Positions 24,395 through 60,727 of a stretch of DNA of 60,727 bases are shown here, piece by piece. The notes under the pieces are model-generated. The model searched no databases. It had not been told where the DNA came from and saw only the letters and a program-made list of their open reading frames with translations. Both the position numbers and the translations under genes were made by a program. How positions within the stretch are numbered: position 1 is the first letter of the stretch; every line of letters begins with the position of its first letter. The DNA is taken from NCBI GenBank assembly GCA_964631475.1, contig CAZVWK010000003.1, forward strand, positions 1 to 60,727, read 5' to 3'. The DNA is from an uncultured Elusimicrobiaceae bacterium. GTDB lineage: Bacteria > Elusimicrobiota > Elusimicrobia > Elusimicrobiales > UBA9959.

Positions 24395-24416
24395 GCCCGT
24401 CCACGGGAGGATTTGG

Positions 24417-25142: not shown

Positions 25143-25155
25143 CGAGGCTGCAAGG

Positions 25156-27393
<2,238 letters not shown>

Positions 27394-27403
27394 GGGCGGT
27401 CTT

Positions 27404-28948: not shown

Positions 28949-28961
28949 CGGGACACGCGAT

Positions 28962-29858: not shown

Positions 29859-29893
29859 CGGGGGGGCGGAAATAACGAATCAAAGAGGGCCTT

Positions 29894-41560: not shown

Positions 41561-41686
41561 ATTGGCGTAGGGAGCGCGGCCGGAGCAGGGCGGCAATGCC
41601 GCAGTCGGTGCCGCGAACTCTGCGGGCGGCCCCGGAGATGGCGAGAGGCTATTCCCCGGGCCGTAGTGTCTTTTTACGGAGGCCGT

Positions 41687-44104: not shown

Positions 44105-44132
44105 TTGACAAAGGAGAAAAATCCTGTATACT
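44105..44132 (+). promoter_or_regulatory. Sigma70-type promoter of the riboswitch-like leader
   Basis: TTGACA (44105-10), a 16-nt spacer, then TATACT (44127-32). It is preceded by the palindrome CTTGAC-ct-GTCAAG (44081-94). Confidence 0.55.
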
Positions 44133-44159: not shown

Positions 44160-44252
44160 TTTTGGTGTGTCACGACAATAGCAAACCCGTCCAAAGACGG
44201 GGGCGCAAAGCCGAGGGTCCGACCGCGGACTGCCTGGCTGCCGAAGACCGGA
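44160..44252 (+). promoter_or_regulatory. Candidate c-di-GMP-I (GEMM-I) riboswitch aptamer
   Basis: Ordered conserved blocks: AGCAAACC (44180-87); hairpin CCCGUC-CAAA-GACGGG (44186-44201); GGCGCAAAGCC (44202-12); hairpin GUCCG-ACCG-CGGAC (44217-30); CCUGGCUGCCGAAG (44233-46). These match the GEMM-I consensus as I recall it. Terminator hairpins follow. Not verified with a covariance model. Confidence 0.55.
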
Positions 44253-44257: not shown

Positions 44258-44280
44258 GAAAAGGGCGCTTGCGCCTTTTC
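44258..44280 (+). terminator. First terminator-like hairpin of the leader
   Basis: GAAAAGG(G)CG-CUUG-CGCCUUUUC: short GC stem, A/U extension and a U4 run. Confidence 0.4.
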
Positions 44281-44296
44281 AACGCAATCTTTCAGG

Positions 44297-44341
44297 CCGT
44301 TCGCCTGTCTTCGGGATACCGGAGCCGGCGGGCGGTTTTTT
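44297..44341 (+). terminator. Second, stronger intrinsic terminator of the leader
   Basis: CCGUUCGCC (44297-305) pairs with GGCGGGCGG (44327-35) for 9 bp including two G-U pairs. An internal UUCG mini-hairpin is present, followed by U6 (44336-41). Confidence 0.6.
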
Positions 44342-44499
44342 ATTTCGGCGGGGTTTTTATGAAAAAAGACCTGATTTGCGGAAAAAGGCGTCTCGCGCGC
44401 GCTGAAACAAATCCGAAATATTGTACTATTATCATAATCAACGCGCTTTGCCGCCTGGAAAGGGCTCTGCGGCAAGGCGTGGTTCTACTTTATTGCCTG

Positions 44500-45201
44500 A
44501 TGACCGGACTTTCACTAATCATCCTGTTGGCCGCCGCCCCGGCGGCTTTCGCCGACGCCGGGACCGTCTCCGTTTCCACCCGGCCGCCCTCGCAGGCCGA
44601 GCTGGCCCCCGCGCAGGCTGTCAATATTCCCGCCGCGGTGAGCGCGCTCAAGGGGAAGAATTACTCGGCCAAAATGGCGGCCATCTTGAACCTGGCGAAA
44701 ACCCGGGACAGCGGCGCCGTGCCAGAGCTGCTCAGGCAGTACATGAGAGAGAAGGACTCCGGCGTAAAAGCGAAGATATTGGAGGCGGCCTCCGCTTTCG
44801 GCGACTCGGCTCTTATGCGGGAGGCGGCCGGCGAACTGCTGACCAGCACTGACACCCGCCTTCGCTACAGCGCGGTCTACGCGCTGGGCTACTCCCCCTC
44901 CGGTGCCGCAGTCCCCTCGCTGCTGGCCATCTTCCGCGGCGCCGACGAGCCAAAACCTCTGCGTATGCAGGCGGCCAACGCGCTTTCCCGCTTCCCGCGC
45001 GAGGACGTCTACGCGGCTTTCGTGGAGGCATTGTCCGACGGCGACCCGGAGATGCGCAGACAGGCCGCGGTCTCTCTGTCCCTCTGCTTCGCCGGCGAGC
45101 CGGACAGGGTGCGGCCCCACCTGGAAAAATTAAGGTCCGATCCGGAGACCGCGGAGACCGCGGAGACTTACCTGGAGATGATGGGCCCGGTGAAAAAATG
45201 A
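44500..45201 (+). CDS. Secreted HEAT-repeat (PBS-lyase-HEAT-like) protein
   Basis: The ATG at 44500 gives the signal peptide MTGLSLIILLAAAPAAFADA. Repeated units of about 30 aa follow (AILNLAKTRDSGAVPELL; RYSAVYALGYSPSGAAVPSLL; RMQAANALSRFPREDVYAAFVEAL; MRRQAAVSL). In-frame codons upstream (44269-44499) are AT-rich and atypical, so I treat them as non-coding. Confidence 0.65.
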   Translation: MTGLSLIILLAAAPAAFADAGTVSVSTRPPSQAELAPAQAVNIPAAVSALKGKNYSAKMAAILNLAKTRDSGAVPELLRQYMREKDSGVKAKILEAASAFGDSALMREAAGELLTSTDTRLRYSAVYALGYSPSGAAVPSLLAIFRGADEPKPLRMQAANALSRFPREDVYAAFVEALSDGDPEMRRQAAVSLSLCFAGEPDRVRPHLEKLRSDPETAETAETYLEMMGPVKK

Positions 45202-45208
45202 GGCGAAG

Positions 45209-48200
45209 ATGACCCCGGCCAGCCGGAAAAAACGCGCCGCCCTCGCGGCAGCCCTGCGCGGCTGCCTCGCGACCGGGCTTTTCCTCCTGCCGGAGCCGGC
45301 CGCCGCCCAGGCCATACCCTGGGGCAATACGCATACCGGCAAGAACGTGCGCATACATGTCTCGATGAATGGCGTCGGCGACGGCTCGGCCATAAGCTTC
45401 ACGGCACCCAAGGACGGCAAGATCGCCGAGATACAGATAGTCGGCTCACGCGACGTGGACGGCTCGTTCATCCTCGGCCTCAGCGAGACGCTTACCTCGG
45501 ATTTCAATGTCTGGCTGGATTCCGCCTCATATACGCTCAATACGGCGGGCGACGGCGTCTTCTGGGCCGGTTCCAATATGCCGGACCTGCCGGACGTTGT
45601 CGGCGGCCGGCTCTACTATATAATCGCAATGCGCAATACCGGCGCCGACACCGAGAACGGCGTTGTCTGTTTCGAGGATAATCCCACCATCGCCTTCGAC
45701 AATAGCGGTAACCCGGTGGAAGACGTCAACCTCGGCGCCTTCGCCAATGAGAACGGCTTGGCCTGGGGCGGCATCACCGGCGCCCCCATCTTCCTCGTCC
45801 GCTATACCGACGGCACCTGGTACGGCCAGCCCTATGTCAGGGCGCCCAATAACGCCTCCACCACCGGCTACGATACCGTCTTGGCCGGCGCGCCGATACT
45901 CAGCGTCCCGGTCTACTCCAACACCAACCTCGTCGCCCAGCGCTTCACGCCCGGCGCCTCCGATATAGGCGTCACCGGCTTCGGCCTCTATATGCAGCGT
46001 GTGGGCAGTCCCGCCGGCGACCTTTTCGCGCGGCTGCACAATGTCACCGATAATATGGTGGTCGTCGATACCGTTTCCGTGACGAACGCGGCCTCGGTCC
46101 CCCTAAGCCCGGCCGCCGGCTGGCTGGACGTGGTCTTCCCCGGAGTGAGACTGCAGGCCGGCAAGAACTACCGGCTCTCCTTCTTCTCGCCGGCGGCCAA
46201 CGCCAGCAATTATTACCGCCCGATAGTTCACGATGTGAGGAACAGCGGCGCCCCATACGAGAACGTCAGCTTCGGCGGCACCGGAGCCTGGTACGAGACC
46301 AGCGCCAATAACGGTGCCAGCTGGAACCTGCCGGCCATCGGCGGAGACGTGGCTTTCCGCCTGCTCAGGGACGTCAACCCGCCCACGGTGACGCTGCTGC
46401 AGCCTCAGCATAATACCTGGCGCAAAACGTTGCCGCAGATAACCGGCACGGCGGTGGACGACTACTACATCCCCGCCGGAGGCGTGAAACTCTTCCTGAT
46501 AGACGATATCGCGGGCAAACGCTGGAACGGGACGGACTGGAACACCGACTATTTCACCGGCGACGAAAATACGCCCGCGCTATGGGTCTCCGCCGGCGCG
46601 CAGTCCGCCGCGCCCGGCGCCATAGTGAACTGGACATACGATATCTCCTGGCAGCACGACAGGCGCTATACCATCTACGCCAGAGCTATGGACCGGGCCG
46701 GCAACTATTCGGCCGGCTGGTCCACCACAACATTTCATTACGACAATTATCAGCCGGCGCCGGAGCGGCCCGATTCGCTGGTCACCACACCATCTCCCGG
46801 CTCCTATGTAAGCCAGATGACGGCCCTCGTCGGCACGTCTTATGACAACCTGCGCGGCGGCATAAACCTGGTCAAGTGGCTGCTCTGGCGTCAGTCGGAC
46901 GGTAATTACTGGAACACCTCTGTCTGGACGCCAGGCCCGCTGCCCGCTGCCGACGCCTGGTACAATTCCAATATCTTCCCCGCCGGCGGCGTCAGCGTGA
47001 CCTGGCAGCCGGACCCGGCCACCCTGCCGCTGGCGGCGGATATGCTGGCCGGCGATATCTACCACATTTCCGCGCGCGCCCAGGACCGGGTCGTGGACGC
47101 CGCCGGCGCCCCGGCCCCCAACTTGGAGGTAGACAGGTCCACCATAACCTTTTACTGGGACGATATTCCTCCAACCTCGTCGATCACGCTGCCGCTTGAT
47201 GGCGGCGTGGTAGGCCAGACCCCTGTTTTTTACGGCACCTATTACGACCAGCACGCGGGCATCGGCCCGTCCATCGGCGGCACGGTCAAGATTAAACTCT
47301 ATGATAAGACCATGAACCTGTGGTACTACACGGGCGACTGGCGCAGCGCCGCGCCGACCAACGACCAGCTGCCCTCGGCCCAGGTCTGGGCTTCCTCCTG
47401 GACCTTCGCCACCCCGCCTCTGACGGGCGGACATCAGTACCTGGTCGTCAGCGTGGCGCAGGACCGCGCCACGCCCGGAAATTACCAGACTTCTTTCGCC
47501 GAAGGAACCTCCTCCAACACTTTCGTCTGCGACAACGAGAACCCTTCCGCCGGCATAACCACGCCTTCCCATAACCATCACAATATCATGGCCCAGCTGG
47601 CAGGCACGGCTTCAGACAGCCCCCAGGCTTCCCAGATAAACCGCGTGGAGTTCGAGCTCGTCTACCCGGCGGGTTCCCCGGCCTGGGCCTGGGACGGCGC
47701 GGCGGGTATCTGGCGCGCCTCCTCCGGGAATTTCAGCACCTACAACGTGGTTATGGGGGGATATCCCGCCTGGACTTACGATGTGCCGGGCGGCATAAAC
47801 TGGCAGCAGGATACCCTCTACAGGCTGCGCGTCCGCTCGGTGGACAATATCGGCAACAAGAGCCAGAATTTCGTCGACGGCCTGACCGAGCGCACTTTCT
47901 ACTACGACGTGTCCAACCCCACTTCCACCGTCACTACGGCGGTGCAGGCCGGCCAGCCTGTCCCGCTGCTGGCCGGGACGAGCAATTATCTGCGCGACAT
48001 AAGCCTGGTCTACGGCACGGCCGCGGACTGGCCGGCCGTCGGCAGCGAGCTGAGCGCCGTCTCCGTCTTCATCAGGAAGATGGACGACCCGGCCGTCAAC
48101 TATTACTGGTACGAGCCGGGCAAATGCTGGAGGACGGGCGGCACCGTATACGCCAATAATTACGAGACCCGGGTGGGCGGCTGGCAGTACGACACTTTCG

Positions 48201-51200
48201 CGCAGGGCGTTTCCTGGTCCACCGGCACCAGGTGCGACAACGGCGCCGCCGCCTGGAACAACGGCGGCACTTTCGAGATACGGACCGAAGCCCGGGACAG
48301 CGCCTATCCCGGCAATAACCCGCTGCCTTACGGCAACCGGGAAAAAGGCGGCACCTACGACAGCCTGGGCCGCGCCGTCGTGGTCTACGATCCGAAAAGA
48401 CCTTTCTCCCGGCTTTCCAATATCCCGGGGACCAATTACACCAACAGCCTGCCGACTCTTTACGGCACGGCCTCCGACAACGACGCGGGAGTCGTCACCT
48501 ACTCGCCCGGCATAAGTTCGGTGAAAGTGCATATCTACAAGCAGGGCCCGCCGCCGGTGCAGACCTACAACGGCACGGCCTGGGTGGACGGCGAGCAGAT
48601 GGACGACGCCTACTGGCTGAACGCGACCTATACGCCTTATTTCGCGGGGGCTTCGTCCGGCACCTGGTCCTACACTGTCGGCAACGATAAATGGCAGCAC
48701 GGCACCACCTACCGTATAGTGCCCAAGACCTACGACCTCGCGGGCAATTACGACGCGGTCCTGGCCACCAGGACTTTCGTTTACGACGTTTACCAGGCCC
48801 CTCCTTCCGAGGCCCCGCGCAGCGAGATCTCTTACCCCGTGGACGATTTCCACACCAATAACTGGAGCGACCTGGTCACCGTGACCGGCACGGCCCATGA
48901 CAATCCTCCGATAGGCAAGGTCCATAAACTCAAACTGATACTCAAGCGCATACAGGGGAATACTACCTCCTACTGGAACGGCGTGACCTGGGCCGACGGC
49001 GACGTGCCCTCCGATACGACGGCCTGGCCCGAGGGCGATCCCGCCGACGGGGCCTACAATACCTCGGAAGAGGCTTTCATCTGCGGAGCCGGCGCGACGG
49101 CCTGTGTGGTGCCCGACGGAGCCACGGTCTGGACGCCCGACCTGAAATACTACCTCTACGCCGAGACGCAGGACCAGGCGGGCAACTATGAGCGGGAGCG
49201 CACCACTCATACCTTCGTCTACGAGGTGCAGGCCCCCACGGTGACCATTACCTACCCGCAGACGGATCTGTATGTTTCCCAGACCGGCAGGGTCGCCGGC
49301 ACAGCGGCCGATAACTGGCCGGGCCGGGTCAATCACGTCGAGGTGCGCATAAGGCGCGACGACGGCTATTACTGGAGGGCCTCGGACGATACCTGGACCC
49401 AGGACGGCGCGCCCGAGGTCTGGAACAATATCGTGTCGCAGGGCACGCTGAGCCCCTCCGGCACCTGGTGGCAGCTCAACGATACCCCCTGGGAAACGAA
49501 CAGGACATACGGCGTCAACGCGCGCGTACGCGACAAGGCCGGCAACTGGGGTCTCGTCTACAGCACCGCTTCCAATGTCGCGGCCGACTTTACCACGCCA
49601 ACTTCCACCGTCACCTACCCGGCGCACGGCGCCAACCTGCAGGAGGAGGTCACGATCATCTCCGGTTCGGCCTCGGACGCGGCGCCCGGCCAGGTGGACA
49701 AAGTCCTGGTCTCCTTCTACTGCAATAACGATATCTGCCAGGGCAATTACTGGAACCCCGTGGCGTCGGCCTGGAATTCCGCGTCGGAGATATTCAGCGA
49801 GGCGACCCTGCTGACCGGCAACAGGTGGCAGATAGCGGCCCCTATATGGGCCAATTCCACCGGCGAAGTGGAATACCAGGTCTTCGCAAAGGCGGTGGAC
49901 AAGGCGGGCGGGGAAGTCCCCAAACCCGGCGCCACCGGCGACGGCCCCTGGATAACTTTCTACCTGACAACTCCCGGGCCCAGTTCCGGGATCACTACGC
50001 CGAACGACGAAACTCCGCATTGGAACCCGTCGGTGGCCCCGGCGCTGGCCGGTACGGCCAACTTCGCCAACTCGGTGGCCCTGAGGCTTGTCGATCACGG
50101 CTCTGACAACCTGCTGGGCACCGGCGACGACCTTGCCTGGGACGGCGATTCCTGGGAGCCGGCCGGCGCCTATACCGGCTATTTCCCGGTAACCGTCTTC
50201 AATGCCCCCAACTGGCAGTGGTCGATGGCGGCCGGCAACTGGAACCCGGACCGCAAATACCGCGTCCGCTCCAAGGCCACGGGCGCGACCGAAGAGGTCC
50301 CGGGCCTGGGCGTTGACTTCGTGCTGGACGCGGACGATCCTTCAGCGGCCATTACCCTGCCGACGGCCGACTACGTCCGGTCCGTGCCGCTGCTGGCCGG
50401 CAACGCCTCGGACGCGGCGCCCGGCGTAGTACAGGAAGTCTATTTCAGGGTAAGGCGGCAGGAATCGTCCCAGTTCTGGAACTGGAACGCCGCCACTTTC
50501 ACCGCGCTGAGCGGCGCCGACACCAACCTGACGGCTTACCTGGACGCGGGCGTTTACAAGTACGACATGCCGTCCGAGGCCTTCGAGACCGACAAGGGCT
50601 ATATCGCCCAGCTCGTCGTGAAGGATAAGGCCGGCAACCTGACCCAGGCCACCGACAGGCCTTTTGCCATAGACAAGTCCTCGCCCGTGGCCAGGCTACT
50701 GCTGCCCTACGACGCCAATGACAAGGGCGTCCGTTCGATACCGGCCATCTCGGGTACCGCAGCCGATACGCAGAAAAATAGCTCGGTGCAGATAGCCATA
50801 CAGAAATGGGTCGGCGCCACACTGGTCTGGTACGACGGGTCCGGTTTCACCTCGCTGCAGGAGGAGCCTTACTGGATTCCCGTCACGCCCCTCAACGGCT
50901 TCCTGTCGCCGGATGCCACCTCCTGGGCCTACGCCCCGGCCGGCCTCAACGATAATTTCGAGGGAGGGTATCGCTATCTGATACTCACCCGCGCCGTGGA
51001 CACGGCCGGAAATACGCAGGAATCATTCTCGGTGGGCGTTTCCTCCCGGGTCGTGAAAGTGGACAAGGCGCCGCCTTCCTCGCTGTTCATCGCGCCGCTG
51101 GACAACGGCGACGGGGTCAGCGGGCGGTACAAGCCGTCCGCCATAGGCCAGTTCCCCGCCAATCACCTGCGCGGCACGGCCTCAGACAACCCTTCCAACC

Positions 51201-54200: not shown

Positions 54201-57200
54201 CCCCGACCATCATCGGCACGGCCATATACTCCACCACGGTGCAGCTCAGGATAGTCGACTACGGCGCGGACCTCGCCGAAGGTCTCGGCAACGACGACCT
54301 GGCCTGGAACGGCTCGGCCTGGGTGTCAACCACGGCCTTCGCCGGCTATATCGGCGTGAACAGTTTCGCCTCTCCCAACTGGCAGTGGACCATGGCGGGG
54401 GGGAACTGGAACAATAACCGCCGCTACCGGGTGCGTTCCATGTCCGCCCACGAGGTGGACGGCACCAGCGAGGCGCCGGCCCCCGGCCGCGAGTTCATAA
54501 TAGACGATACTCCGCCTTCCGCCGCGGTCACCGCCCCGGACAGGGCCTATCTGCCGCGCCTCCAGGAACTGCGCGGCTCGGTCTCAGACGTGTCTCCCGG
54601 CCTGCTGCAGTCCGGCTATTTCCGTGTCACGCGCCAGGGGGCGGCCCAGTTCTGGGACTGGCGCCTGTCCACTTTCACGGCCGCCGGCGCGGACATAAAC
54701 CTCCCGGCGTCCATCCTGGCCGGCATCGCCTCCTATACGACCGACTATTTCCAGACGGGCCAGGCGTGGGAGGCCGACCGGACTTACGAGGTTCAGCTTT
54801 TCGCCTCGGACCGGGCCGGCAACCTGGGCTCCTCACCGGTCGCGACTTTTACAGTAGACCGCAGTTCGCCGGCGGCCCGCATCCTCGTGCCGCGCGACGC
54901 CAACGGCAAAGGCATCCGCTCGATAGCCTCGATCAGCGGCACCGCCGCCGACAACTGGGGCAACGCCAATATAGAGGTGGCCGTGCAGCAGTGGGGCAGC
55001 CCGCGGCTCTGGTTCAACGGCACGGATTTCCTGGAGCCCGGCGAAACACCCTACTTCATACCGCTGGACGCCAACGGCACGCTCTCGCAGTACGCCACCT
55101 CCTGGGCCTACGCTCCCGCGGTCCTGGACACGCGCTTTACCGCCGGGACCACCGGCCTGCGCTACCTGGTGCTGGCGCGGGCCACGGATATAGCGGGCAA
55201 TATCCAGGACCAATACGCCGTCGGTTTCTCTTCGGTCATCATCTCCATCGACAAGAGGCCTCCATCCTCGCTCATCGCTTTTCCGGCCGACCACCAAGAC
55301 GGCGTGAGCGGACGCTATAAGCCGTCCAATGCCGGCAAGGCGGGCACCGGGACCCGCTTTTTAGGCTCCGCTTCCGACAATTTCTACAGCGAGCGCAATG
55401 CCGGCGTGTCGGCCGCCAGGATACGGCTCTCCCATCTGCTCGCCGGCGATACCTGGTACTGGCTGGGCGCGTCGTTCAGTTCCGGCACGCTGGCCGAGGC
55501 GGGCGCCTGGCAGCCGGTCAGCGTCAGCGCCAATCCCCCGGACTGGGACTGGGTCTACCTGCCCGACGTGGAGTGGCCGGCGGGCGACAGGGAGTACAGG
55601 CTGGAATCCATGGCGATGGACGACTCGCGGCTCTCCGACGACGGCGGCGACGGCAACTGGGAGAGCGCCTGGACCAGGGGCGCCAACCTCAGGCAGTTCA
55701 TCATCGACGATACCCCGCCGGCCGTGCTGATAACTTCGCCGACTTTCGACGCCTCGGGCGCGCTGGCCGAGATACGCGGCACCGCCGACGCCGACATCGC
55801 CGGCTTCAAGCGTACTGAAATAAAGATTTCCACCAGCGGCGTGGACGGCGCCCGCTACTGGACCGGCGCCGGCTGGTCGCCTTCGGAGACCTGGATAAAC
55901 TCCGACAAACAGGGGCCGGCCTCCTGGTACTATACGGTGCCCGGCGCCATGCTCAGTGACGATACGGTCTACACGGCCGTGACCCGCGCCGTGGACTACG
56001 CCGATAATTTTTCCTCGGTCTATTCGACGAAGACCTTCACTTACGACGTCACCCCGCCGCTGGTCTCGATGTCGCACCCTGAGAACGCCGCCACCTATTC
56101 GCGCATCTCCCTCTCCACCCCGATAGCCGGCGCCACCGCCAATACGCAGTCCTCGCCTTTCACCGGCGCCAGCGCGGTCGCCGTCGCGATCAGCGAGATA
56201 GACGGCGCCGGCGGTTACTCCGCCTGTTTCGACGGCAACGCCTTCGCGGGCTGTCCCTCGCCGGTCTGGCTGCCGGCGCAGGGTACGCCGGCCAGCTGGA
56301 CCTTCAACGACGCGGACCTGTCCTTCCTGAGCGACAGGCGCTACAAGTACGAGGCCCGGGCGACGGACATAGCGGGCAACCAGTCCGCCCCCGCGTACGT
56401 TATAACAAAGTTCGACCTGGATATCCCGACCTCGACCGTGGTCTCCCCTTCCGCCGAATATGTCAGGACTCTCACGCTGATATCCGGCACCGCCTCCGAC
56501 GAGCGCTACGGCGCCCGCACTTACGAAGCCGGCCTGGGCACCTACACGGTCAAGGTCGCCGTCCGGCTGGTGGGAGGCGACTGGTGGAACGGCGTCGACG
56601 CTTTCAATTCGGCCAATCCGCTCTGGTACGAAGCCTCGGTGGACACCGCGCCCTACGGCGCCGGCCAGCCGGTGCTGAACTGGACCTACGCCGTGCCGGC
56701 CAGCATGCAGGGCGTCATCTCCGGCCTGGGCAGGAAAGATTACCTGGCCGTGCCCTGGGCCTATGACCTGGCGCTCAACCGCGAATTCGGCCCGGGCGGC
56801 GCCGAGCCTTCCAACGCCGACATCCCGGCCGGCGTCGGCCGCGTCATACGCTACGACAATATCATCCCCGTGGCGGAGTCCACCGCCCCGGCCGACGGCG
56901 GCTACTACAACAGCGTCGCCGCCCTCTACGGAGTCGCCTACGACACCGGCTCGGTGACCGGCGTGCAGGTGCTCTTCAAGGCGAGGGGGTCGTTCAACGC
57001 GACCTGGCGCGGCACCTATAACAACGACACCTCCGACTGGGACGACACGGCGTCCAAGTACACGCGCTGGAGCACCGCCACCTTCAACAACGGCGCCTGG
57101 ACCATAGCGCTGCCTTCGCTGATGCCGGTCAACAATAACCGCTTCTCAGTCTGGGCGCGGGCCATAGACGCGGCCGGCAACTGGCAGCTAAGCCCCTCCC

Positions 57201-60200
57201 CGGCCCAGATAGACGCCAACCTGAAGGCGGACGGCTCTCCCGCCCATGTCTTCACTTTCGACCGCACCATCCCGGTCACGGGCGTCACGGCCCCGTCCAG
57301 CTACGCGCTGGCCGTCTCCACCGGCCTCATCACCGGCACTTCGTTCGACGCGGGCACCGAGCCCTCGGGCGTCAGCGAGGTGCGCCTGCGCTTCCGCCGT
57401 TCCGACAACTCTTGGTGGAGTTTTATAGACAATAACTGGACCAGCGCCACCCAGTCCGACACCTTCGGCGTGGACGGCTCCGACCCTTGGTCCAAACCGA
57501 TAAACCAGGCTTCGCAGGAGGACGGCTACCGCTACGATATCTACCACTTCGCCAAGGACCGCGCGGGCAACAATGAGTCGGGCGCCTCTTTCTCCACCTT
57601 CACTTTCATCACCGACTATACCGCGCCTTCGTCCAGCATCACCTTCCCGGCCAATAACAGCTTCATCGGCGCGGTCACCAGCCTCTCCGGCACCGCGGAC
57701 GACAGCGCGGAGAACCTGCGCGGCTGGTCCGGCGCCCGCGGCTTTGAGTCCGGCGTGTCCGCCGGAGGCGTGGCGGTCGCTCTCCAGCGCCTGACCGACA
57801 ACTACTGGTGGAACGGGACCAATAACTTCGTGTCCGGCGCCATGCAGTGGCATGCGGCCGCCTTCGACGGCGCGTCTTCCGGCACCTGGACCTACGCCCT
57901 GCCGGCCGGGGCCATAGCCGACGGCACCACGTACTACGCGATGAGCCGGGTGACGGACATCGCGGGCAACATAAAGACGCAGTGGACGACCAACTACTTC
58001 ACCGGCGACACGACCCCGCCCGATTCCAGGGCCACCGGGCCCATGGGAACGCAGTCCGTAGTCAACACCATCTCGGGCACCGCGCAGGATACACCTCCGG
58101 GCGAGCTTAGGCCGACGGGGACCATCATGGTGGCGCTGCGGCAGATTTCGCCCGTAGTGAACTGCTTCAACGGCTCCGGTTTCGTCGCTTGCCCGGCCGG
58201 CGTCTATCCGGACGACCGCGTCTGGATCGCCACCGGCACAACCGGAAACCCGGCCGGGCAGCCCGCGGCCTGGACCTGGGACACCTCGCTGATAAACTGG
58301 GCCAATAACGCCGACTACGACGTGCAGGCGCTGGCGGTGGACCGCGCCGGCAACACCCGTCCCCAGCCCGGGGCCTCCTCGCCCGACCTGACATTCAGGT
58401 TCGTCAGCCCGGCGGCGGACACGGTCATTACGCAGCCCGCGACCGAGTTCGGCAATTACCGCGCGGGAGACGTGCTGTCGATGCTGGGCACCGGCGTCAA
58501 CCTGCGCGCCTCCAACAGCGTGGAGATACGGGTAAAGCGGCTGAAGGAGCCGGCCAGCTGGTGGTTCGAGCCCTCGGTGCACTGGGTGAACAGCGACACC
58601 TTTACCTATGTCGGCCACACCGCCGGCTCCTGGTCCATGGGCCTCAGCGGCTCGTCGGCCTTCAACGTGGACAATGCCAGCTACACCCTGTCGGCGGTGG
58701 GCTATAACGCCGCCAATGAGGCGGAAGTCCCGCCGACCAACAGGACGATAATAATAGACAATACCGTCCCGCTGGCGGTCATCCAGTCGCCGTCATACCA
58801 GTACATCAGGACCATGCCGGCCATAAGCGGCACCGCGGCCGATCCCGGACGCGGCGAACTGCCGTCCGATTACCGCGAGGGGATGAGCCATGTCCGAGTC
58901 ATTATCAAGGACCTTTTCGCCGGCACCTACTGGAGCGGTTCCTCTTTCGGGTCATTTGGCCCGCAGAGCGAACTTCCCGTCAACGGCGTGCTGAACTGGT
59001 CCACCTCCACCCACGTGACCCCGGCGCTGCTCGACGGGCGCAACTACCGCGTCTTCGCCAAGGCTTACGACAAGGCCGGCAACCGCGACGACAACGAGGG
59101 CTCGATGCCCGGCTTCGGCGTGGTCTTCGACACCGCCCCGCCGAACTCGTTCGTCGCCTACCCGGCGCATATGCAGGTGCTGCGCTCCCTCTCGCCGCTG
59201 GCCGGCACCGCCGAGGATCCGGCCGGGGCCAATCCGCCCAATCTGAAATCCGACCTAGGGCGGGTCGCGGTGCAGCTCTACGACGAGGCCGGCGTGAAAT
59301 GGTGGCATCACGGCGCCGGCGCCTTCTCGGTGCTCAGTTCCAGCTTCAACATAACCTCAGGCACCGATACATGGTCCTATACGCACCCGAACCTGGAGGC
59401 CTCGCTGGAGTCGGGCAAGTACTACATACTGAGCTCCAGCGCGGTGGACCGCGCCGGCAATCCCCAGGCCGCGGTGGTCAACGAGGTGTCCTCCCTCACC
59501 TTCGTCTGGGACAGGACGGCCCCCGAGGCCTTCTTCGCCGTGCCGGTCGAGGGCGGGCGCTACCGCCCGTCGGTTCTCACCGGCGTCAATGCGCTCAACG
59601 GTACCGCCTCGGACGCGCCGCTGCCGGGCATTACGGACCAGCTCAATAAGGCGCAGATAAACCTGAGTTATCTGCACTCCGGCGACACCTATTACTGGAC
59701 CGGCGCGGCCTTCAGTTCCTGGACAGTGACCTTCGACGGGGCCTGGCAGGACGTGGTCGGGGCCGCTTCGTGGAACTATCCTTTCGACGGCGCGAAATGG
59801 GTGTCCGACAGGGAGTACACGCTGCTGGTACGGGCCTTCGACAAGGCCGAGCCCATGGGCGCCAACGGCGGCAACGAGAGCGCCTGGGCGCAGGTGAAGT
59901 TCGTGGTGGACGGCACTCCCCCGGTCTCCCGGGTTTCCACGCCCACCGCCGGCAGCTACATCCAGGCTTCGCTCTCCGAAATATCCGGCACTTCCTTCGG
60001 CGGCCTGTCGGGCCTGCAGTCCGGGGCGTCGGGCCTGCGGTTGCGCGCCTACTACACCCAGGGCGTGAACACCTGGTACTGGCGCGGCACCGCCGCCCTA
60101 GGCTGGTCGCTGAACTCCCCGGTGGATCTGCCAGTGGATTTCACGGCCTCCGCCTCAACCGTAACCTGGAGCTACCCGCCGGTGGGATGGGAGCCGCCGG

Positions 60201-60727
60201 TCATCTCCACCAACAACCAGGTTTATAACTTCTCCATATCCGGCCAGGACCTGGCCGGGAACGCCGAAGCCTACGCCGCGATTTCCGTCACCTCCGACTT
60301 TAACTATCCGGCCATAACCATCTCCACGCCGATGGCCGGAGCGAACGCCTTCTACGGCGCGGCGAGAACGATGCCCGACATGCGCGGCCTCGCGGGCGAC
60401 TCACCGGCCGGCATAGTCCTGCCGGTACTGGCGCAGATGTCGAACATATCCGAGAGCGGCGCCGTCAAGCCCAAGTGGGACGGGGCTCAGTGGAGCGTGG
60501 CGGGGTCCACCTGGATGGCCGTCGCCGCCGCGCTGCCGAACTGGACCTTCTCCTCTCCCTCGTGGCCGGTGAACAAGCGCTTCCGCGTCGAGATGACAGG
60601 AGTCGACGCCGCGGGCAACTCCGTGCCGCCGGGGACCTATACCCGCGACTTCATCTACGACGTCAACAGGCCGTCCACGTCTATAAACGGGCTCGCCGCC
60701 GCCGGTTTCCGGAATCCCTCCCAGATA
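45209..60727 (+). CDS. Giant secreted multi-Ig-like-domain surface protein (partial; open to the window end)
   Basis: ATG at 45209, 8 nt after the HEAT gene. Signal peptide MTPASRKKRAALAAALRGCLATGLFLLPEPAAAQA. I read the frame (positions congruent to 2 mod 3) codon by codon to 60727 and saw no stop, which gives 5173 codons. It has genome-typical codon usage and a recurring module F-x-YD-x-x-P-x-S-x-I-x-x-P...I-x-GTA-x-D...YW...W...Y...A-x-D-x-AGN. It is not in the ORF track. Confidence 0.9.
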   Translation, partial: MTPASRKKRAALAAALRGCLATGLFLLPEPAAAQAIPWGNTHTGKNVRIHVSMNGVGDGSAISFTAPKDGKIAEIQIVGSRDVDGSFILGLSETLTSDFNVWLDSASYTLNTAGDGVFWAGSNMPDLPDVVGGRLYYIIAMRNTGADTENGVVCFEDNPTIAFDNSGNPVEDVNLGAFANENGLAWGGITGAPIFLVRYTDGTWYGQPYVRAPNNASTTGYDTVLAGAPILSVPVYSNTNLVAQRFTPGASDIGVTGFGLYMQRVGSPAGDLFARLHNVTDNMVVVDTVSVTNAASVPLSPAAGWLDVVFPGVRLQAGKNYRLSFFSPAANASNYYRPIVHDVRNSGAPYENVSFGGTGAWYETSANNGASWNLPAIGGDVAFRLLRDVNPPTVTLLQPQHNTWRKTLPQITGTAVDDYYIPAGGVKLFLIDDIAGKRWNGTDWNTDYFTGDENTPALWVSAGAQSAAPGAIVNWTYDISWQHDRRYTIYARAMDRAGNYSAGWSTTTFHYDNYQPAPERPDSLVTTPSPGSYVSQMTALVGTSYDNLRGGINLVKWLLWRQSDGNYWNTSVWTPGPLPAADAWYNSNIFPAGGVSVTWQPDPATLPLAADMLAGDIYHISARAQDRVVDAAGAPAPNLEVDRSTITFYWDDIPPTSSITLPLDGGVVGQTPVFYGTYYDQHAGIGPSIGGTVKIKLYDKTMNLWYYTGDWRSAAPTNDQLPSAQVWASSWTFATPPLTGGHQYLVVSVAQDRATPGNYQTSFAEGTSSNTFVCDNENPSAGITTPSHNHHNIMAQLAGTASDSPQASQINRVEFELVYPAGSPAWAWDGAAGIWRASSGNFSTYNVVMGGYPAWTYDVPGGINWQQDTLYRLRVRSVDNIGNKSQNFVDGLTERTFYYDVSNPTSTVTTAVQAGQPVPLLAGTSNYLRDISLVYGTAADWPAVGSELSAVSVFIRKMDDPAVNYYWYEPGKCWRTGGTVYANNYETRVGGWQYDTFAQGVSWSTGTRCDNGAAAWNNGGTFEIRTEARDSAYPGNNPLPYGNREKGGTYDSLGRAVVVYDPKRPFSRLSNIPGTNYTNSLPTLYGTASDNDAGVVTYSPGISSVKVHIYKQGPPPVQTYNGTAWVDGEQMDDAYWLNATYTPYFAGASSGTWSYTVGNDKWQHGTTYRIVPKTYDLAGNYDAVLATRTFVYDVYQAPPSEAPRSEISYPVDDFHTNNWSDLVTVTGTAHDNPPIGKVHKLKLILKRIQGNTTSYWNGVTWADGDVPSDTTAWPEGDPADGAYNTSEEAFICGAGATACVVPDGATVWTPDLKYYLYAETQDQAGNYERERTTHTFVYEVQAPTVTITYPQTDLYVSQTGRVAGTAADNWPGRVNHVEVRIRRDDGYYWRASDDTWTQDGAPEVWNNIVSQGTLSPSGTWWQLNDTPWETNRTYGVNARVRDKAGNWGLVYSTASNVAADFTTPTSTVTYPAHGANLQEEVTIISGSASDAAPGQVDKVLVSFYCNNDICQGNYWNPVASAWNSASEIFSEATLLTGNRWQIAAPIWANSTGEVEYQVFAKAVDKAGGEVPKPGATGDGPWITFYLTTPGPSSGITTPNDETPHWNPSVAPALAGTANFANSVALRLVDHGSDNLLGTGDDLAWDGDSWEPAGAYTGYFPVTVFNAPNWQWSMAAGNWNPDRKYRVRSKATGATEEVPGLGVDFVLDADDPSAAITLPTADYVRSVPLLAGNASDAAPGVVQEVYFRVRRQESSQFWNWNAATFTALSGADTNLTAYLDAGVYKYDMPSEAFETDKGYIAQLVVKDKAGNLTQATDRPFAIDKSSPVARLLLPYDANDKGVRSIPAISGTAADTQKNSSVQIAIQKWVGATLVWYDGSGFTSLQEEPYWIPVTPLNGFLSPDATSWAYAPAGLNDNFEGGYRYLILTRAVDTAGNTQESFSVGVSSRVVKVDKAPPSSLFIAPLDNGDGVSGRYKPSAIGQFPANHLRGTASDNPSNLAAGLQTAQIRLSYLLAGDTYYWTGASFSSGAVAEAAAWRNASITGSAPIWNWDYTTSVVWPAGDREYLAEARGMDDSRLSDDGGDGNWEQAPYVSRGFIVDNTPPEVLITSPVAAAVRTMSIIRGTAEAGLAGHKWTELKLSTSGVDGTRYWTGSDWTPAETWITTVKEGPTSWYYTVPPALLSDGRDYTAVARALDFADNYSSVYSTYVFTYDTVPPYVAVSFPLNDAPYSQIRLSTPVAGSSHQNDQASARAKVSTVAVQIADLDAPGGPFCFDGALFGACPSWHPAQGTVDSWTWNSAALAFVNDRRYQFTAKAVDFAGNESAAAQVFIRYDVERPTSTITQPLAGYTTGFTQIRGTASDERDGPRSYEARLSSYTVKVALKRLTAPAGWWNPATDDFSDANPLWFEAYTSTSATPNQFTYNLTGPMLSYLANPSNQNVTYRIVPWAFDRALNREYGPSAAEPQDGDIPADVGITVIYDNEKPVTSITLPNAAAHNTLPNITGTADDNIRVNSVRFTVYNQSQSKYYDPSQNPPWVIDVENNAPWVLAQSTIYQTSAAWTYNIQNSSWTSGVRYRVRARATDLAGNLDVVYSTSTFQFDNNAPVSSVTYPANGQHLSAAALPVTITGTSFDFPVGDQSGVSQIGMYLQRASDLAYWSGSGWEPLEQVLLANPVGDYSSWNRGVEGGMFTGNDGERFHIHLNARDAATNQEGYSVKSTFVYDIGRPTGTISYPFDNGYISQTGRITGGSYDKPNGAVSDVRVRIRQTAGPNAGRYWRVSDGSWTIDGAPEVWNSAAQYGTLSPAGTWWQLNTAPWQSGETYEVDAYALDMAGNYQLPFSTATNVKADFTAPSSTVTYPAHASVVESELTVISGSASDPAPGVLDKVRVSYYKVDTARWWDFGAQAWSATSEQFTEAALLAGNRWEATGVSTPTWIATLAGLDYRIFARAVDQAGNEVAKPGAPAADSSFIQFTLRPPPPESTITTPDDTVPHLRTSPAPTIIGTAIYSTTVQLRIVDYGADLAEGLGNDDLAWNGSAWVSTTAFAGYIGVNSFASPNWQWTMAGGNWNNNRRYRVRSMSAHEVDGTSEAPAPGREFIIDDTPPSAAVTAPDRAYLPRLQELRGSVSDVSPGLLQSGYFRVTRQGAAQFWDWRLSTFTAAGADINLPASILAGIASYTTDYFQTGQAWEADRTYEVQLFASDRAGNLGSSPVATFTVDRSSPAARILVPRDANGKGIRSIASISGTAADNWGNANIEVAVQQWGSPRLWFNGTDFLEPGETPYFIPLDANGTLSQYATSWAYAPAVLDTRFTAGTTGLRYLVLARATDIAGNIQDQYAVGFSSVIISIDKRPPSSLIAFPADHQDGVSGRYKPSNAGKAGTGTRFLGSASDNFYSERNAGVSAARIRLSHLLAGDTWYWLGASFSSGTLAEAGAWQPVSVSANPPDWDWVYLPDVEWPAGDREYRLESMAMDDSRLSDDGGDGNWESAWTRGANLRQFIIDDTPPAVLITSPTFDASGALAEIRGTADADIAGFKRTEIKISTSGVDGARYWTGAGWSPSETWINSDKQGPASWYYTVPGAMLSDDTVYTAVTRAVDYADNFSSVYSTKTFTYDVTPPLVSMSHPENAATYSRISLSTPIAGATANTQSSPFTGASAVAVAISEIDGAGGYSACFDGNAFAGCPSPVWLPAQGTPASWTFNDADLSFLSDRRYKYEARATDIAGNQSAPAYVITKFDLDIPTSTVVSPSAEYVRTLTLISGTASDERYGARTYEAGLGTYTVKVAVRLVGGDWWNGVDAFNSANPLWYEASVDTAPYGAGQPVLNWTYAVPASMQGVISGLGRKDYLAVPWAYDLALNREFGPGGAEPSNADIPAGVGRVIRYDNIIPVAESTAPADGGYYNSVAALYGVAYDTGSVTGVQVLFKARGSFNATWRGTYNNDTSDWDDTASKYTRWSTATFNNGAWTIALPSLMPVNNNRFSVWARAIDAAGNWQLSPSPAQIDANLKADGSPAHVFTFDRTIPVTGVTAPSSYALAVSTGLITGTSFDAGTEPSGVSEVRLRFRRSDNSWWSFIDNNWTSATQSDTFGVDGSDPWSKPINQASQEDGYRYDIYHFAKDRAGNNESGASFSTFTFITDYTAPSSSITFPANNSFIGAVTSLSGTADDSAENLRGWSGARGFESGVSAGGVAVALQRLTDNYWWNGTNNFVSGAMQWHAAAFDGASSGTWTYALPAGAIADGTTYYAMSRVTDIAGNIKTQWTTNYFTGDTTPPDSRATGPMGTQSVVNTISGTAQDTPPGELRPTGTIMVALRQISPVVNCFNGSGFVACPAGVYPDDRVWIATGTTGNPAGQPAAWTWDTSLINWANNADYDVQALAVDRAGNTRPQPGASSPDLTFRFVSPAADTVITQPATEFGNYRAGDVLSMLGTGVNLRASNSVEIRVKRLKEPASWWFEPSVHWVNSDTFTYVGHTAGSWSMGLSGSSAFNVDNASYTLSAVGYNAANEAEVPPTNRTIIIDNTVPLAVIQSPSYQYIRTMPAISGTAADPGRGELPSDYREGMSHVRVIIKDLFAGTYWSGSSFGSFGPQSELPVNGVLNWSTSTHVTPALLDGRNYRVFAKAYDKAGNRDDNEGSMPGFGVVFDTAPPNSFVAYPAHMQVLRSLSPLAGTAEDPAGANPPNLKSDLGRVAVQLYDEAGVKWWHHGAGAFSVLSSSFNITSGTDTWSYTHPNLEASLESGKYYILSSSAVDRAGNPQAAVVNEVSSLTFVWDRTAPEAFFAVPVEGGRYRPSVLTGVNALNGTASDAPLPGITDQLNKAQINLSYLHSGDTYYWTGAAFSSWTVTFDGAWQDVVGAASWNYPFDGAKWVSDREYTLLVRAFDKAEPMGANGGNESAWAQVKFVVDGTPPVSRVSTPTAGSYIQASLSEISGTSFGGLSGLQSGASGLRLRAYYTQGVNTWYWRGTAALGWSLNSPVDLPVDFTASASTVTWSYPPVGWEPPVISTNNQVYNFSISGQDLAGNAEAYAAISVTSDFNYPAITISTPMAGANAFYGAARTMPDMRGLAGDSPAGIVLPVLAQMSNISESGAVKPKWDGAQWSVAGSTWMAVAAALPNWTFSSPSWPVNKRFRVEMTGVDAAGNSVPPGTYTRDFIYDVNRPSTSINGLAAAGFRNPSQI
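49214..57598 (+). repeat. Tandem duplication of an 11-module super-repeat inside the giant gene
   Basis: Copy A is 49214-53362 (1383 codons) and copy B is 53363-57598 (1412 codons). They are colinear module by module (for example GAPEVWN...GTLSP(S/A)GTWWQLN; CFDG-x-x-F-x-x-CPS; MDDSRLSDDGGDGNWE). A 48-nt identical run occurs at 51422-51469 and 55616-55663. Confidence 0.8.

Follow-up and report, generated by a model that had tools for sequence, protein, structure and literature searches.

Giant repetitive surface proteins are an already known kind of protein. RTX adhesins (MpIBP/MpAFP region II, PDB 4p99, and 5irb; SiiE-type, 2yn3) reach several thousand residues, are built of tandem Ig-like modules of ~100-130 aa, and have ligand-binding domains at one end of a long stalk. 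SprB-type T9SS cargo of Bacteroidota consists of a Sec signal peptide, a very long repetitive β-rich body and a C-terminal β-sandwich sorting-type domain. To our knowledge the T9SS has been described only in Bacteroidota and their relatives and in no member of the Elusimicrobia; a literature search on T9SS in Elusimicrobia found nothing relevant. DUF4082 domains are likewise found in large extracellular multi-domain proteins. We know of no function for DUF4082, and the name explains little. GEMM-I riboswitches (RF01051, Vc2; GEMM-Ib of Geobacter) lie in the 5' leaders of extracellular and surface genes, and we know of no study of GEMM-I-type cyclic-dinucleotide signalling in Elusimicrobia.

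Giant genes have also been surveyed in uncultivated lineages. Those of Omnitrophota have T2SS/T4P-like genes and genes for c-di-GMP-binding PilZ proteins nearby, and adhesion to other cells has been suggested (bioRxiv 10.1101/2023.11.21.568195). Elusimicrobia are among the phyla rich in proteins of > 5,000 aa, with a link to host association (PMC11573180).

The giant gene described here lies at the end of a 60,727-nt stretch of DNA, the window, from an uncultured Elusimicrobiaceae bacterium. It shares with the surveyed giants (bioRxiv 10.1101/2023.11.21.568195; PMC11573180) the size class, an uncultivated lineage, an assembly that breaks within the gene, and the presence of pilus or secretion genes and cyclic-di-GMP signalling nearby. 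The Omnitrophota giants reach greater lengths, up to tens of thousands of aa, and contain many enzymatic domains including peptidases, whereas the protein encoded here consists almost entirely of repeats and a head. The cyclic-dinucleotide link also takes another form, a riboswitch in the leader instead of downstream PilZ genes. Compared with RTX adhesins, the protein is of the same general size and module type and has its putative binding head at one end of the stalk, but this end is N-terminal, not C-terminal. The layout of T9SS cargo such as the gliding adhesin SprB is the same, with the C-terminal domain judged from relatives; one difference is that the C-terminal matches of these relatives are to FlgD_ig and lie below or near threshold.

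The giant open reading frame

An earlier note, made from the sequence by eye, had claimed an uninterrupted frame from the ATG at 45209 to the last base of the window. Translation confirmed this: frame 2 at 45209..60727 (+) has 5,173 codons (15,519 nt) and no stop. Its absence from the supplied ORF track is explained, as that note had presumed, by the rule of the listing, which leaves out frames still open at the edge of the source. The window end coincides with a codon boundary, as would happen by chance one time in three. The closest in-frame stop on the 5' side is a TGA at 45191, and the ATG at 45209 is therefore the first possible start. A GAGG Shine-Dalgarno sequence at 45200-45203 shares bases with the upstream gene's stop codon.

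The giant ORF is coding and under purifying selection. At a stop probability of 0.025 per random codon, set by the base composition of the window, the chance of 5,173 open codons is ~10^-57.5. The position-specific GC content (0.57/0.53/0.85) resembles that of other genes in the window, and dN/dS against the orthologue L001 is 0.12-0.34. The antisense ORFs at 47612..50098 (-) and 57188..58618 (-), with a GC3 of ~0.55, are shadow ORFs. The 5,173-aa product is acidic and Cys-poor, with 490 D+E against 326 K+R and 15 Cys.

Collinear orthologues with 61-89% identity are found on five independently assembled Elusimicrobia MAG contigs. Among them, L001 belongs to JAVHLJ010000002.1, which extends 18 kb further, and L005 to JAJYNO010000009.1, which extends 33 kb further. 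In L001, L003, L004 and L005 the frame stays open for at least 3,333 aa beyond the position of the window end, which bears out the claim that the gene runs past the window, and four orthologues are stop-free over 12-21 kb. The giant ORF is the 5' part of one much longer gene for a huge repetitive cell-surface protein. Direct comparison with the orthologues predicts a gene of at least 8,500 codons, and by extrapolation the full gene has perhaps ~11,900 aa (~12,000 codons). Collapsed repeats were sought by TRF and by blastn self-comparison and none was found; TRF reported no tandem DNA repeat in the giant ORF region. With a longest exact DNA repeat of only 48 nt and the collinearity of the five contigs, assembly collapse or chimera is unlikely.

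Signal peptide and N-terminal head

The signal peptide claimed earlier was upheld as a Sec-type signal on sequence and hydropathy. It spans aa 1-33 (45209..45307 (+); MTPASRKKRAALAAALRGCLATGLFLLPEPAAA, followed by QA) and consists of a charged n-region (RKKR), a hydrophobic core and an AAA-QA site, with the predicted cleavage before QA. A lipoprotein signal was also considered and rejected; the candidate LRGC has R at position -2 and is not a canonical lipobox.

The first ~400 aa contain two β-sandwich units, in agreement with the earlier reading. Unit 1 covers aa ~47-208 (45347..45832 (+)) and unit 2 covers aa ~235-390 (45911..46378 (+)). The AlphaFold2 model of the head computed with an alignment has a pLDDT of 83.9 and a pTM of 0.82, while the model from the single sequence has a pLDDT of 33. 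By hhalign, unit 1 is homologous to unit 2 (probability 96.8%).

The proposed likeness of the second unit to DUF4082 was borne out only indirectly, through homologues of the head and not by the head itself. No DUF4082 (PF13313) match was found in the head at E ≤ 1 (aa 1-500) or at E ≤ 0.1 (aa 32-400), but 11 of 41 aligned sequences, comprising the head and 40 distant homologues collected at E 1e-17 to 8e-4, match the domain with a best E of 2.2e-10, most single matches being below the gathering score of 28.4. The matches fall on either unit (unit 1 in P0009, unit 2 in P0011). Together with the AlphaFold2 model and hhalign, they suggest that unit 2 is a distant DUF4082 relative, though the head family differs from DUF4082 in being a fixed tandem of two units. 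Lectin_like matches occur in four of the 41 sequences.

Foldseek searches with the whole head returned uncharacterised phage proteins (E 5e-12, TM 0.55-0.57) and, more weakly, phage tail, receptor-binding and CBM proteins and a fungal lectin. Against the PDB it gave weak matches to two-domain jelly-roll proteins (TM ~0.2), and a head profile run against PDB sequences gave only chance-level T-cell-receptor matches. PHROGs had no match for the head, the head homologues or the HEAT-repeat protein encoded upstream. Close relatives of the head were returned by neither the word-indexed nor the exhaustive protein search; the word-indexed search with the head alone gave no match, the head itself included. 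Two metagenome scans, one with the head and one with modules 1-5, found no relatives.

The Ig-like module string

The head is followed by 37 contiguous Ig-like modules of 112-151 aa each (aa 398-5152; 46400..60664 (+)), delimited with a self-built HMM. This number agrees with the "three to four dozen" counted by eye. The start of module 38 (60665..60727 (+)) is cut by the window end; it is placed by the end of module 37 and by the collinear orthologues, which continue with the same modules. The module consensus is P..S.IT.P...GTA.D...V.V......W.G..W.....W.......Y...A.D.AGN....F.YD. The terminal AGN motif that the earlier note gave as the module ending holds for only part of the string, since an exact D-x-AGN is present in 21 of the 37 modules and is absent in that form from the others.

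The assignment of the modules to the Big_5/SbsA type had to be abandoned. No Big_5 (PF13205) match was found at E ≤ 0.01 in the two halves of the protein, at E ≤ 1 in 600-aa pieces of aa 1-2000, or at E ≤ 0.1 in the 37 modules. Matched instead were Big_13 (64.3 bits, gathering score 27), Big_7 (43.5, 24.1), Big_3_3 (28.6, 27) and Big_3_2 (26.0, 23.3), these whole-protein scores being sums of many weak stretches; the NCBIfam OmpL47-type domain was matched as well. Among single modules at E ≤ 0.1, 10 of 37 match Big_13 (best 2.3e-4) and five match Big_7 (best 2.3e-5), with partial model coverage that is limited to positions ~56-101 of Big_13 and ~1-57 of Big_7. The module looks like a longer relative of Big_13, Big_7 and Big_3_x rather than a plain member.

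A profile of the modules matches the extender Ig domains of giant adhesins in the PDB, namely MpAFP RII (4p99, 3.2e-14), an RTX adhesin (5irb, 3.5e-9) and 2yn3 (1.7e-7), and the C-terminal strand motif ...Y.v.a.D.AGN... is common to both sets of modules. The matches are confined to profile positions 65-118 of 119, the C-terminal half of the module; the extra, Trp-rich N-terminal half lies outside them. A second difference is that RTX-adhesin modules are near-identical, whereas those of the giant protein are diverged, with 17-34% identity to module 1.

Best-partner comparison of the modules revealed a super-repeat. Copy 1 comprises modules 6-16 (48347..52612 (+)) and copy 2 modules 17-27 (52613..56803 (+)), with 45-63% protein and 64% DNA identity between them. 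The best partner of each super-repeat module is the module 11 places on, module 7 being the weakest case. By this comparison the two copies are an old duplication of an 11-module block, through which the string grew in part.

The C-terminal region of relatives

Past the position of the window end the orthologue string has ~16 more modules, followed by a second repeat of ~125 aa and non-repetitive β-rich sequence. In the L001 protein the modules extend to ~aa 5800, where the second repeat starts. Module number differs by two between orthologues.

The 3' end of the gene was approached through a more distant relative, L006, which overlaps the L001 tail at 48-61% identity, reaches the 3' end and ends in FlgD_ig (E 3.2e-4; 21.1 bits, below the gathering score of 27). 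An in-frame TAA separates its FlgD_ig-bearing part from the preceding part. In addition, six C-terminal fragments (P0080-P0085) carry precomputed PF13860, and three of the six are named Elusimicrobia MAG proteins. The C-terminal sequence of these relatives, ...FPNPV...ITY.L....V...LYD..G..V...WDG.N..G..V..G.Y..., matches FlgD_ig, and no Por_Secre_tail was found on the C-termini of L006 or P0080-P0085. The head relatives P0002 and P0003 likewise end in FlgD_ig, Por_Secre_tail or CHU_C domains. The C-terminal FlgD_ig domain looks like a T9SS C-terminal sorting domain, as known from relatives 42-61% identical in the overlaps, the C-termini of the gene itself and of its close orthologues lying beyond the data. 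The N-terminal Sec signal peptide, also a feature of T9SS cargo, is present in the giant protein. HemolysinCabind/RTX repeats were found in none of the window part, the L001 and L005 tails, and L006.

Word-indexed protein searches with the L001 and L006 tails returned partial fragments only, with no 100% self-match. The full-length giants seem to be absent from the word-indexed database, and public data represent the family only by fragments labelled "hypothetical protein, partial". No other contigs were found that encode two window neighbours of the giant gene.

Leader, riboswitch and operon

The giant gene appears to be the second gene of a two-gene operon. The first, at 44359..45201 (+), encodes a HEAT-repeat protein of 280 aa from the ATG at 44359 (HEAT_2, 2.6e-18) with an N-terminal hydrophobic segment; its ORF is open from 44269. 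The operon is inferred from the 7-nt gap between the end of the HEAT gene and the giant gene ATG, and no plus-strand terminator-like site was found between the two genes. Upstream lies a σ70-like candidate promoter, TTGACA-16 nt-TATACT (44105..44132 (+)), placed by consensus match (11 of 12 positions). The scan gave two overlapping promoter-like sites against 0.3 expected in shuffles.

Between promoter and operon is a cyclic-dinucleotide riboswitch aptamer of the c-di-GMP-I (GEMM-I) clan (44171..44246 (+)). It matches all 80 positions of Rfam RF03167 and forms every helix, with 63.1 bits (gathering score 59; E 1.4e-12), and exceeding the gathering score over the full length places it in clan CL00126. 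The best-scoring model is the c-di-GMP-I-GGC variant, yet the aptamer lacks the G47 of that variant: where the RF03167 consensus reads CGCGAAgC, the window reads CGCAAAGC. The G at the A47 equivalent is, as we take it, the middle letter of "GGC". In alignments read by eye, the ligand-contact columns have A at the equivalent of Vc2 G20, A at A47 and C at C92. The sequence at the first of these is AAUA-GCAAACC, whereas both Rfam consensus sequences have G before GCAAA.

The A at the G20 equivalent is shared with the cGAMP-sensing GEMM-Ib of Geobacter, and in cGAMP riboswitches G20 is replaced by A (PMC6140456). By sequence, this A marks riboswitches that sense cGAMP or are bispecific. The ligand does not follow from A20 by itself, since both ligands are bound by Vc2 G20A and by several natural A20 examples (PMC6140456). 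A GGDEF protein in the window (13031-14944) was considered as a cGAMP-making "Hypr" enzyme; its motif is GGDEI without the canonical base-contact residues, and it gave no support.

A candidate expression platform follows at 44260..44345 (+), located by hairpin scan and folding. Two terminator-like hairpins lie in it: a short one that carries a U-run (44260-44281), and a long GC-rich one with UUUUUUAUUU behind it (~44294-44345). The leader folds with an MFE of -56.3 kcal/mol (z = -2.9), and the 3' strand of the aptamer is predicted to pair alternatively with an SD-like GGCGGGG. The giant gene appears to be switched by a cyclic-dinucleotide-sensing RNA.

Genomic neighbourhood

Upstream of the giant gene are genes for the HEAT protein, an S41-like peptidase, unknown proteins and two-component proteins. 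A Tad-like locus at 23075-31216 encodes TadE, a TadZ/TadA-like ATPase, two TadB/C-like proteins and a TPR protein. T9SS machinery genes (SprA, PorV, PorU and others) were not found within the 60.7-kb window. Some of the window neighbours match Por_Secre_tail and CHU_C.

Function

Our preferred reading, to which we give a probability of roughly 60%, is that the gene encodes a cyclic-dinucleotide-controlled adhesin-like surface fibre, the word "adhesin" being taken from architecture alone. The giant protein would be exported by Sec, and its C-terminal domain would take it across the outer membrane or anchor it there. The product would form a rod a few hundred nanometres long with a lectin-like or CBM-like N-terminal head at the far end, whose target may be a glycan or the surface of another cell. 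The HEAT gene and the giant gene would be transcribed together, and a cyclic dinucleotide would govern elongation or translation of the shared transcript. The A at the G20-equivalent position leaves c-di-GMP and 3'3'-cGAMP as the candidates. With such control the fibre would be made only in a surface-associated state.

A structural envelope protein, such as an S-layer-like coat, a sheath or a spacer whose head binds the cell's own envelope glycan, is an unlikely alternative that draws on the same architectural evidence. The acidic, Cys-poor composition is like that of many surface-layer proteins, and the data are silent on which end of the protein is distal. However, riboswitch control suits a conditional role such as attachment better than a constitutive coat, the two-module difference between orthologues is usual for adhesin stalks, and a single giant monomer would be an unusual builder of a lattice.

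It is also rather improbable that the protein is a cell-contact tool for epibiotic or predatory attachment, made together with the Tad-type pilus. The Tad-like locus is ~14 kb upstream, and in fold the head is similar to tail and receptor-binding proteins of phages. Cell contact has been proposed for Omnitrophota giants with T2SS/T4P-like and PilZ genes nearby (bioRxiv 10.1101/2023.11.21.568195), and the listing of Elusimicrobia as rich in > 5,000-aa proteins is tied to host association (PMC11573180). Nevertheless, searches of the 5,173 aa and of the orthologue tails turned up no domain of a peptidase, lytic or toxin type, and two-component and other genes separate the Tad genes from the giant gene.

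The idea of an RTX-type adhesin that leaves the cell through type I secretion, as MpIBP, SiiE or LapA do, is already largely refuted. The module profile does match MpAFP RII, an RTX adhesin and 2yn3, making these extenders the closest solved structures, but only through the C-terminal half of the module. T1SS substrates lack the Sec-type signal peptide seen here, the window part and orthologue tails have no HemolysinCabind/RTX repeats, and the relatives end in FlgD_ig. Within the window, on the upstream side, no T1SS ABC/MFP pair adjoins the gene; the window does have AcrB/OEP genes (567-6429), but these lie 39 kb from the giant gene and form an RND efflux set.

That the giant ORF is not one functional gene but an assembly chimera, a repeat collapse or a decaying pseudogene is just as improbable: repetitive genes are often misassembled and relatives do show breaks (the in-frame TAA of L006, a frameshift at the start of L003, fragmented calls in the low-coverage contig L007), but here there are no near-identical DNA repeats, the window is collinear with five MAG contigs, stops are missing from 15.5 kb here and from 12-21 kb of four orthologues, and dN/dS is well below 1.

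The surface-fibre reading can be extended to a more specific joint proposal, which we consider doubtful: that the ~12,000-aa fibre stands outside curated families, has a head fold otherwise found only in uncharacterised phage proteins, uses FlgD_ig-type export and is switched on by 3'3'-cGAMP via A20.

Implications

The existence of the giant ORF is not surprising because such proteins are known and Elusimicrobia were already listed as rich in proteins of > 5,000 aa. The window is the only intact 5' end of the family that was found, as no close head relative was returned and the tail queries gave only partial fragments, and it comes with the signal peptide, the head and the regulatory leader. 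A Sec signal combined with a FlgD_ig-type C-terminus, in a lineage without a described T9SS, raises the question of how proteins of ~1 MDa reach the surface. If the joint proposal is true, FlgD_ig-type export without a known T9SS would point to an undescribed route of outer-membrane export or anchoring. The A20 riboswitch leader offers a directly testable way into two questions: when an uncultivated bacterium makes such a fibre, and whether cGAMP signalling reaches beyond the groups in which it was discovered. A 3'3'-cGAMP switch, if true, would add Elusimicrobia to the Geobacter-type bacteria in which cGAMP riboswitches signal, and would link this signalling to adhesion.

A giant gene under purifying selection

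The frame that begins at the ATG at 45209 continues to 60727 on the forward strand, and its translation gave 5,173 codons with zero stops, confirming the ORF of at least 5173 codons described in the earlier note. This ATG is the first available start because an in-frame stop sits upstream at 45191. A GAGG located 6-9 nt 5' of the ATG shares bases with the stop codon of the upstream gene. The window is 64.7% G+C, which sets the stop probability per random codon at p = 0.025, so the chance of 5,173 open codons at the window base composition is ~10^-57.5. The GC fractions at codon positions 1, 2 and 3 are 0.57, 0.53 and 0.85, a pattern also seen in the window's other genes, and the long opposite-strand ORFs in the region, with GC3 of ~0.55, are shadows. 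The ORF is missing from the supplied ORF track for want of a stop, as had been suspected, because the track's ORF finder drops ORFs that run off the end and states this omission.

When the last 407 aa of the window protein were compared with GTDB species-representative genomes, five Elusimicrobia MAG contigs, L001-L005, were matched with identities of 89, 86, 83, 65 and 61%. These are collinear with the window across 800 to 3,700 aa, and most 400-aa pieces are 46-90% identical. The Nei-Gojobori dN/dS of the giant gene against L001 (JAVHLJ010000002.1) is 0.12-0.34 in four segments. The giant ORF is a real gene and purifying selection acts on it. Tandem Repeats Finder reported no tandem repeat in 45209-60727. 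A blastn self-comparison of the ORF found a single long internal similarity (3.2 kb, 64% identity), and its longest exact DNA repeat is 48 nt (51422-51469 and 55616-55663); this repetition is too small to give repeat collapse a foundation. The view that the ORF is an artefact or a pseudogene is contradicted by the absence of collapsible repeats, the five collinear MAG contigs and the dN/dS range.

In one of these contigs, L003, positions 1-160 hold module-like sequence that occupies frame 0 up to nt 155 and a different frame thereafter. This switch near the contig end would stem from either a frameshift or a misassembly in the MAG.

Continuation beyond the window

The gene was expected to run past the window, and in four orthologues (L001, L003, L004, L005) the frame indeed stays open through the entire 3,333 aa flank. 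In L001 the same modules go on for ~2,060 aa and are followed by a different ~125-aa repeat, about nine copies of which precede the locus end. Big_1 is present in distant relatives of this repeat. L006, a more distant JGI contig that reaches the 3' end, overlaps the final 810 aa of L001 at 48-61% identity. One in-frame TAA (2571-2573) divides its homologous frame into calls of 852 aa and 3,348 aa in the same frame; this TAA may reflect a sequencing error, mark a true gene boundary or be a read-through site. The 3,348-aa gene is mostly non-repetitive and beta-rich, ends in ...FPNPVDLRKGGIEAKVDITYILNEDAEVTMTLYDLLGYVV...WDGRNSLGGIVSKGGYIVRIKASS, and matches FlgD_ig. Three of six other C-terminal fragments are named as proteins of Elusimicrobia MAGs. 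All six align with the L006 end at 44-49% identity and contain PF13860 (6/6). Their contigs start within the giant gene, and the downstream genes differ.

Close orthologues directly show a length of no less than 8,500 aa. Summed across organisms, the full length would extrapolate to about 11,900 aa (5,173 + 3,333 + 52 + 3,348), and the 18 kb left on the L001 contig has room enough for it.

Signal peptide and head

Residues 1-33 (MTPASRKKRAALAAALRGCLATGLFLLPEPAAA, then QA) are laid out like a Sec signal peptide, with charged residues, a hydrophobic stretch and then small residues. They are predicted to be one, with a putative cleavage site, in line with the classical signal peptide first proposed. 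The N-terminal region of ~400 aa had been read as two beta-sandwich-like units. An AlphaFold2 model built on an alignment of 40 relatives agrees (pLDDT 83.9, pTM 0.82), confidently giving two beta-sandwiches at residues ~47-208 and ~235-390 with a disordered linker between them. The two units are mutually homologous (hhalign probability 96.8%, E 2.2e-10).

The head is remote from curated families. Pfam gave no match even at E<=1, and neither a word-indexed protein search, a PHROG search nor a sequence-level search of the PDB found a relative. Exhaustive searching of 1.84 billion cluster representatives yielded 69 relatives at E<=1e-3, led by one at E 4.9e-28 and 31% identity; many are proteins of 300-500 aa containing little besides the head. 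DUF4082 is matched by 11 of 41 aligned head sequences (best 2.2e-10, on either unit) and Lectin_like by four of the 41. Thus the resemblance to DUF4082 suggested earlier holds as distant homology, but the head's own sequence fails the family model. In the PDB, Foldseek gave only weak jelly-roll, lectin and CBM matches (best E 5e-4, TM ~0.2). In BFVD it aligned two uncharacterised phage proteins over the entire head (E 5e-12 and 6e-12, TM 0.55-0.57). Below these ranked many tail-fibre, receptor-binding and CBM-type proteins. An extracellular location of the head family is favoured because two distant relatives, P0002 and P0003, likewise carry C-terminal Por_Secre_tail, CHU_C or FlgD_ig domains.

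Ig-like modules

A self-trained HMM divides residues 398-5152 into 37 modules of 112-151 aa with no unexplained gaps (alignment A1), within the three to four dozen estimated by eye. The closing motif A-x-D-x-AGN was only partly borne out: exact D-x-AGN ends 21 of the 37, while the other 16 have degenerate versions. At this place modules 13 and 24 carry MDDSRLSDDGGDGNWE, an acidic loop encoded by the 48-nt exact DNA repeat, the remainder of the two blocks being 64% identical. The loop could be a metal-binding site or a gene-conversion product.

The assignment to Big_5 (SbsA type) has to be replaced, since Pfam never matched Big_5 in the giant protein. Whole-protein scores above gathering were obtained for Big_7, Big_13, Big_3_2 and Big_3_3, and NCBIfam matched an OmpL47-type domain. 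With single modules at E<=0.1, Big_13 was found in 10 of 37 and Big_7 in five of 37, each spanning about half a module. Against the PDB, the module profile hits giant-adhesin extender Ig domains (MpAFP region II 4p99, 3.2e-14; RTX adhesin 5irb, 3.5e-9; 2yn3, 1.7e-7) and, more weakly, chitinase Ig/FN3 domains, all confined to profile positions 65-118. We read the module as an Ig-like domain akin to these families, apparently with a longer, Trp-rich first half.

For modules 8-16 the clearly best partner sits 11 modules later (scores 258-435 vs ~100 for others). Modules 6 and 17 also pair, and module 35 is similar to modules 13 and 24. Since best partners lie 11 modules apart, the stalk expanded when a block of 11 modules was duplicated long ago (45-63% protein identity between copies), and traces of a third copy remain. 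Module number differs among orthologues, as the closest, L001 and L002, are without ~265-270 aa, roughly modules 15-16 (window aa ~2180-2476, ~51750-52640), a stretch that is present both in the window and in L005 (JAJYNO010000009.1), a more distant orthologue.

Genomic context

The window reads as ordinary chromosomal DNA of a diderm bacterium. Its genes include AcrB, OEP, FtsX, M23 peptidase, CtpA and TsaD, as well as histidine kinases and a LuxR-type regulator. A Tad/Flp-type pilus locus (23075-31216, +) precedes the giant gene by 14 kb. It consists of a TadE-like gene (23075-23566, +), a 745-aa ATPase with a CbiA/ParA-like (TadZ/CpaE-like) N-terminal half fused to a T2SSE/TadA domain (25156-27393, +), two T2SSF proteins (27404-29858, +) and a TPR protein (29894-31216, +). 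Two adjacent proteins at 18340-21452 (+) have FlgD_ig repeats, and the second (718 aa) has a CHU_C/Por_Secre_tail-like end (CHU_C 1.5e-9; TIGR04183 21.3 bits, cut-off 23). Because of these domains the source genome appears to employ T9SS-type C-terminal domains despite being Elusimicrobia, a group in which we know of no T9SS. Two genes upstream of the riboswitch described below is a 427-aa Gly/Ala/Ser-rich low-complexity protein (41666-42949, +) with a single N-terminal hydrophobic segment, a Cys-rich C-terminal end (CGESCGCSCAAPCCCLPQAPAGCP) and no match in Pfam.

Riboswitch leader

The giant gene is directly preceded by a HEAT-repeat gene (ATG 44359 to 45201) with its stop 7 nt before the giant gene ATG, and this in turn, across a gap of 290 nt, by an S41-like peptidase gene (42960-44066). 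The gap holds a near-consensus promoter, TTGACA-16-TATACT (44105-44132, +), and a full-length aptamer of the c-di-GMP-I (GEMM-I) clan (44171-44246, +; RF03167, 63.1 bits vs gathering 59, E 1.4e-12). Next, at 44260-44345 (+), come two hairpins: a short one with a U-run, then a long, GC-rich one that ends in UUUUUUAUUU at ~44345, just 5' of the HEAT gene's SD-like GGCGGGG. The aptamer 3' strand has an alternative pairing with this SD region. No plus-strand terminator-like site separates the HEAT gene from the giant gene, and we infer that the two form one riboswitch-controlled transcript.

The aptamer scores best on the GGC variant RF03167, yet it is without that variant's G47: the column after GACGC/GGCGC is A in the window and G in the variant. 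The column before GCAAACC is A (AAUA, then GCAAACC), where both Rfam consensus sequences have G, and the junction C is kept. We take these three columns to be Vc2 positions 20, 47 and 92, by a count along the Vc2 sequence checked against the variant name letters G, G, C. Riboswitches that bind cGAMP have A in place of G20, the Vc2 G20A mutant has similar affinity for c-di-GMP and cGAMP, and several natural examples are bispecific (PMC6140456). The A at the G20-equivalent column would thus be a signature of cGAMP-sensing or bispecific riboswitches, making c-di-GMP, 3'3'-cGAMP or both the candidate ligand. A second GEMM-I aptamer (3335-3414, +; RF01051, 60.9 bits) with the identical AAUA and GCAAA is present in L009, another Elusimicrobia MAG locus, 230 nt past the 3' end of a homologous giant gene; TPR and FliG-domain genes come next.

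The window also encodes a GAF-GGDEF protein (13031-14944, +), whose true ORF start probably lies downstream of the listed one. As a clue to the dinucleotide made it is uninformative because its active-site motif is degenerate (GGDEI); the usual NRR and Asp base-contact residues are absent, and the protein may act as a receptor or be an inactive cyclase.

Proposed function

The domain order, repeat history, selection, orthologues and leader elements documented here suggest the following scheme. The protein would be exported via Sec, and an FlgD_ig-type C-terminal domain would direct it to the outer membrane or anchor it there. This layout is similar to that of T9SS cargo, with a C-terminal domain match that is sub-threshold and read in relatives. 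Ig-like extender domains are roughly 4-5 nm each, so ~65 modules would form a rod ~0.3 micrometres long. The tandem beta-sandwich head at its distal N-terminal end would bind a glycan or a cell surface, and the protein would work like giant Ig-repeat adhesins.

Alternatively, it may be a cell-cell contact device working with the Tad pilus, a contact role that is discussed for Omnitrophota giants, or it may be a structural coat protein. An RTX/T1SS adhesin, the family of the matched adhesin extender domains, is contradicted by the Sec-type signal peptide at the start of the protein; neither the window part nor the orthologue tails gave a match to RTX repeats, and no T1SS genes adjoin the giant gene on its upstream side. 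Three defining features of that family were checked and none was found, which places the protein outside it.

Huge proteins are frequent in Elusimicrobia (PMC11573180), and the size of this adhesin-like protein is not new. What is noteworthy is its uncurated head and module types, its likely export route and its A20 riboswitch leader. The leader, which came from reading the 290-nt gap, is the main addition to the earlier finding: cyclic dinucleotides usually signal surface-attached life, and through this leader one of them would gate production of the giant protein.
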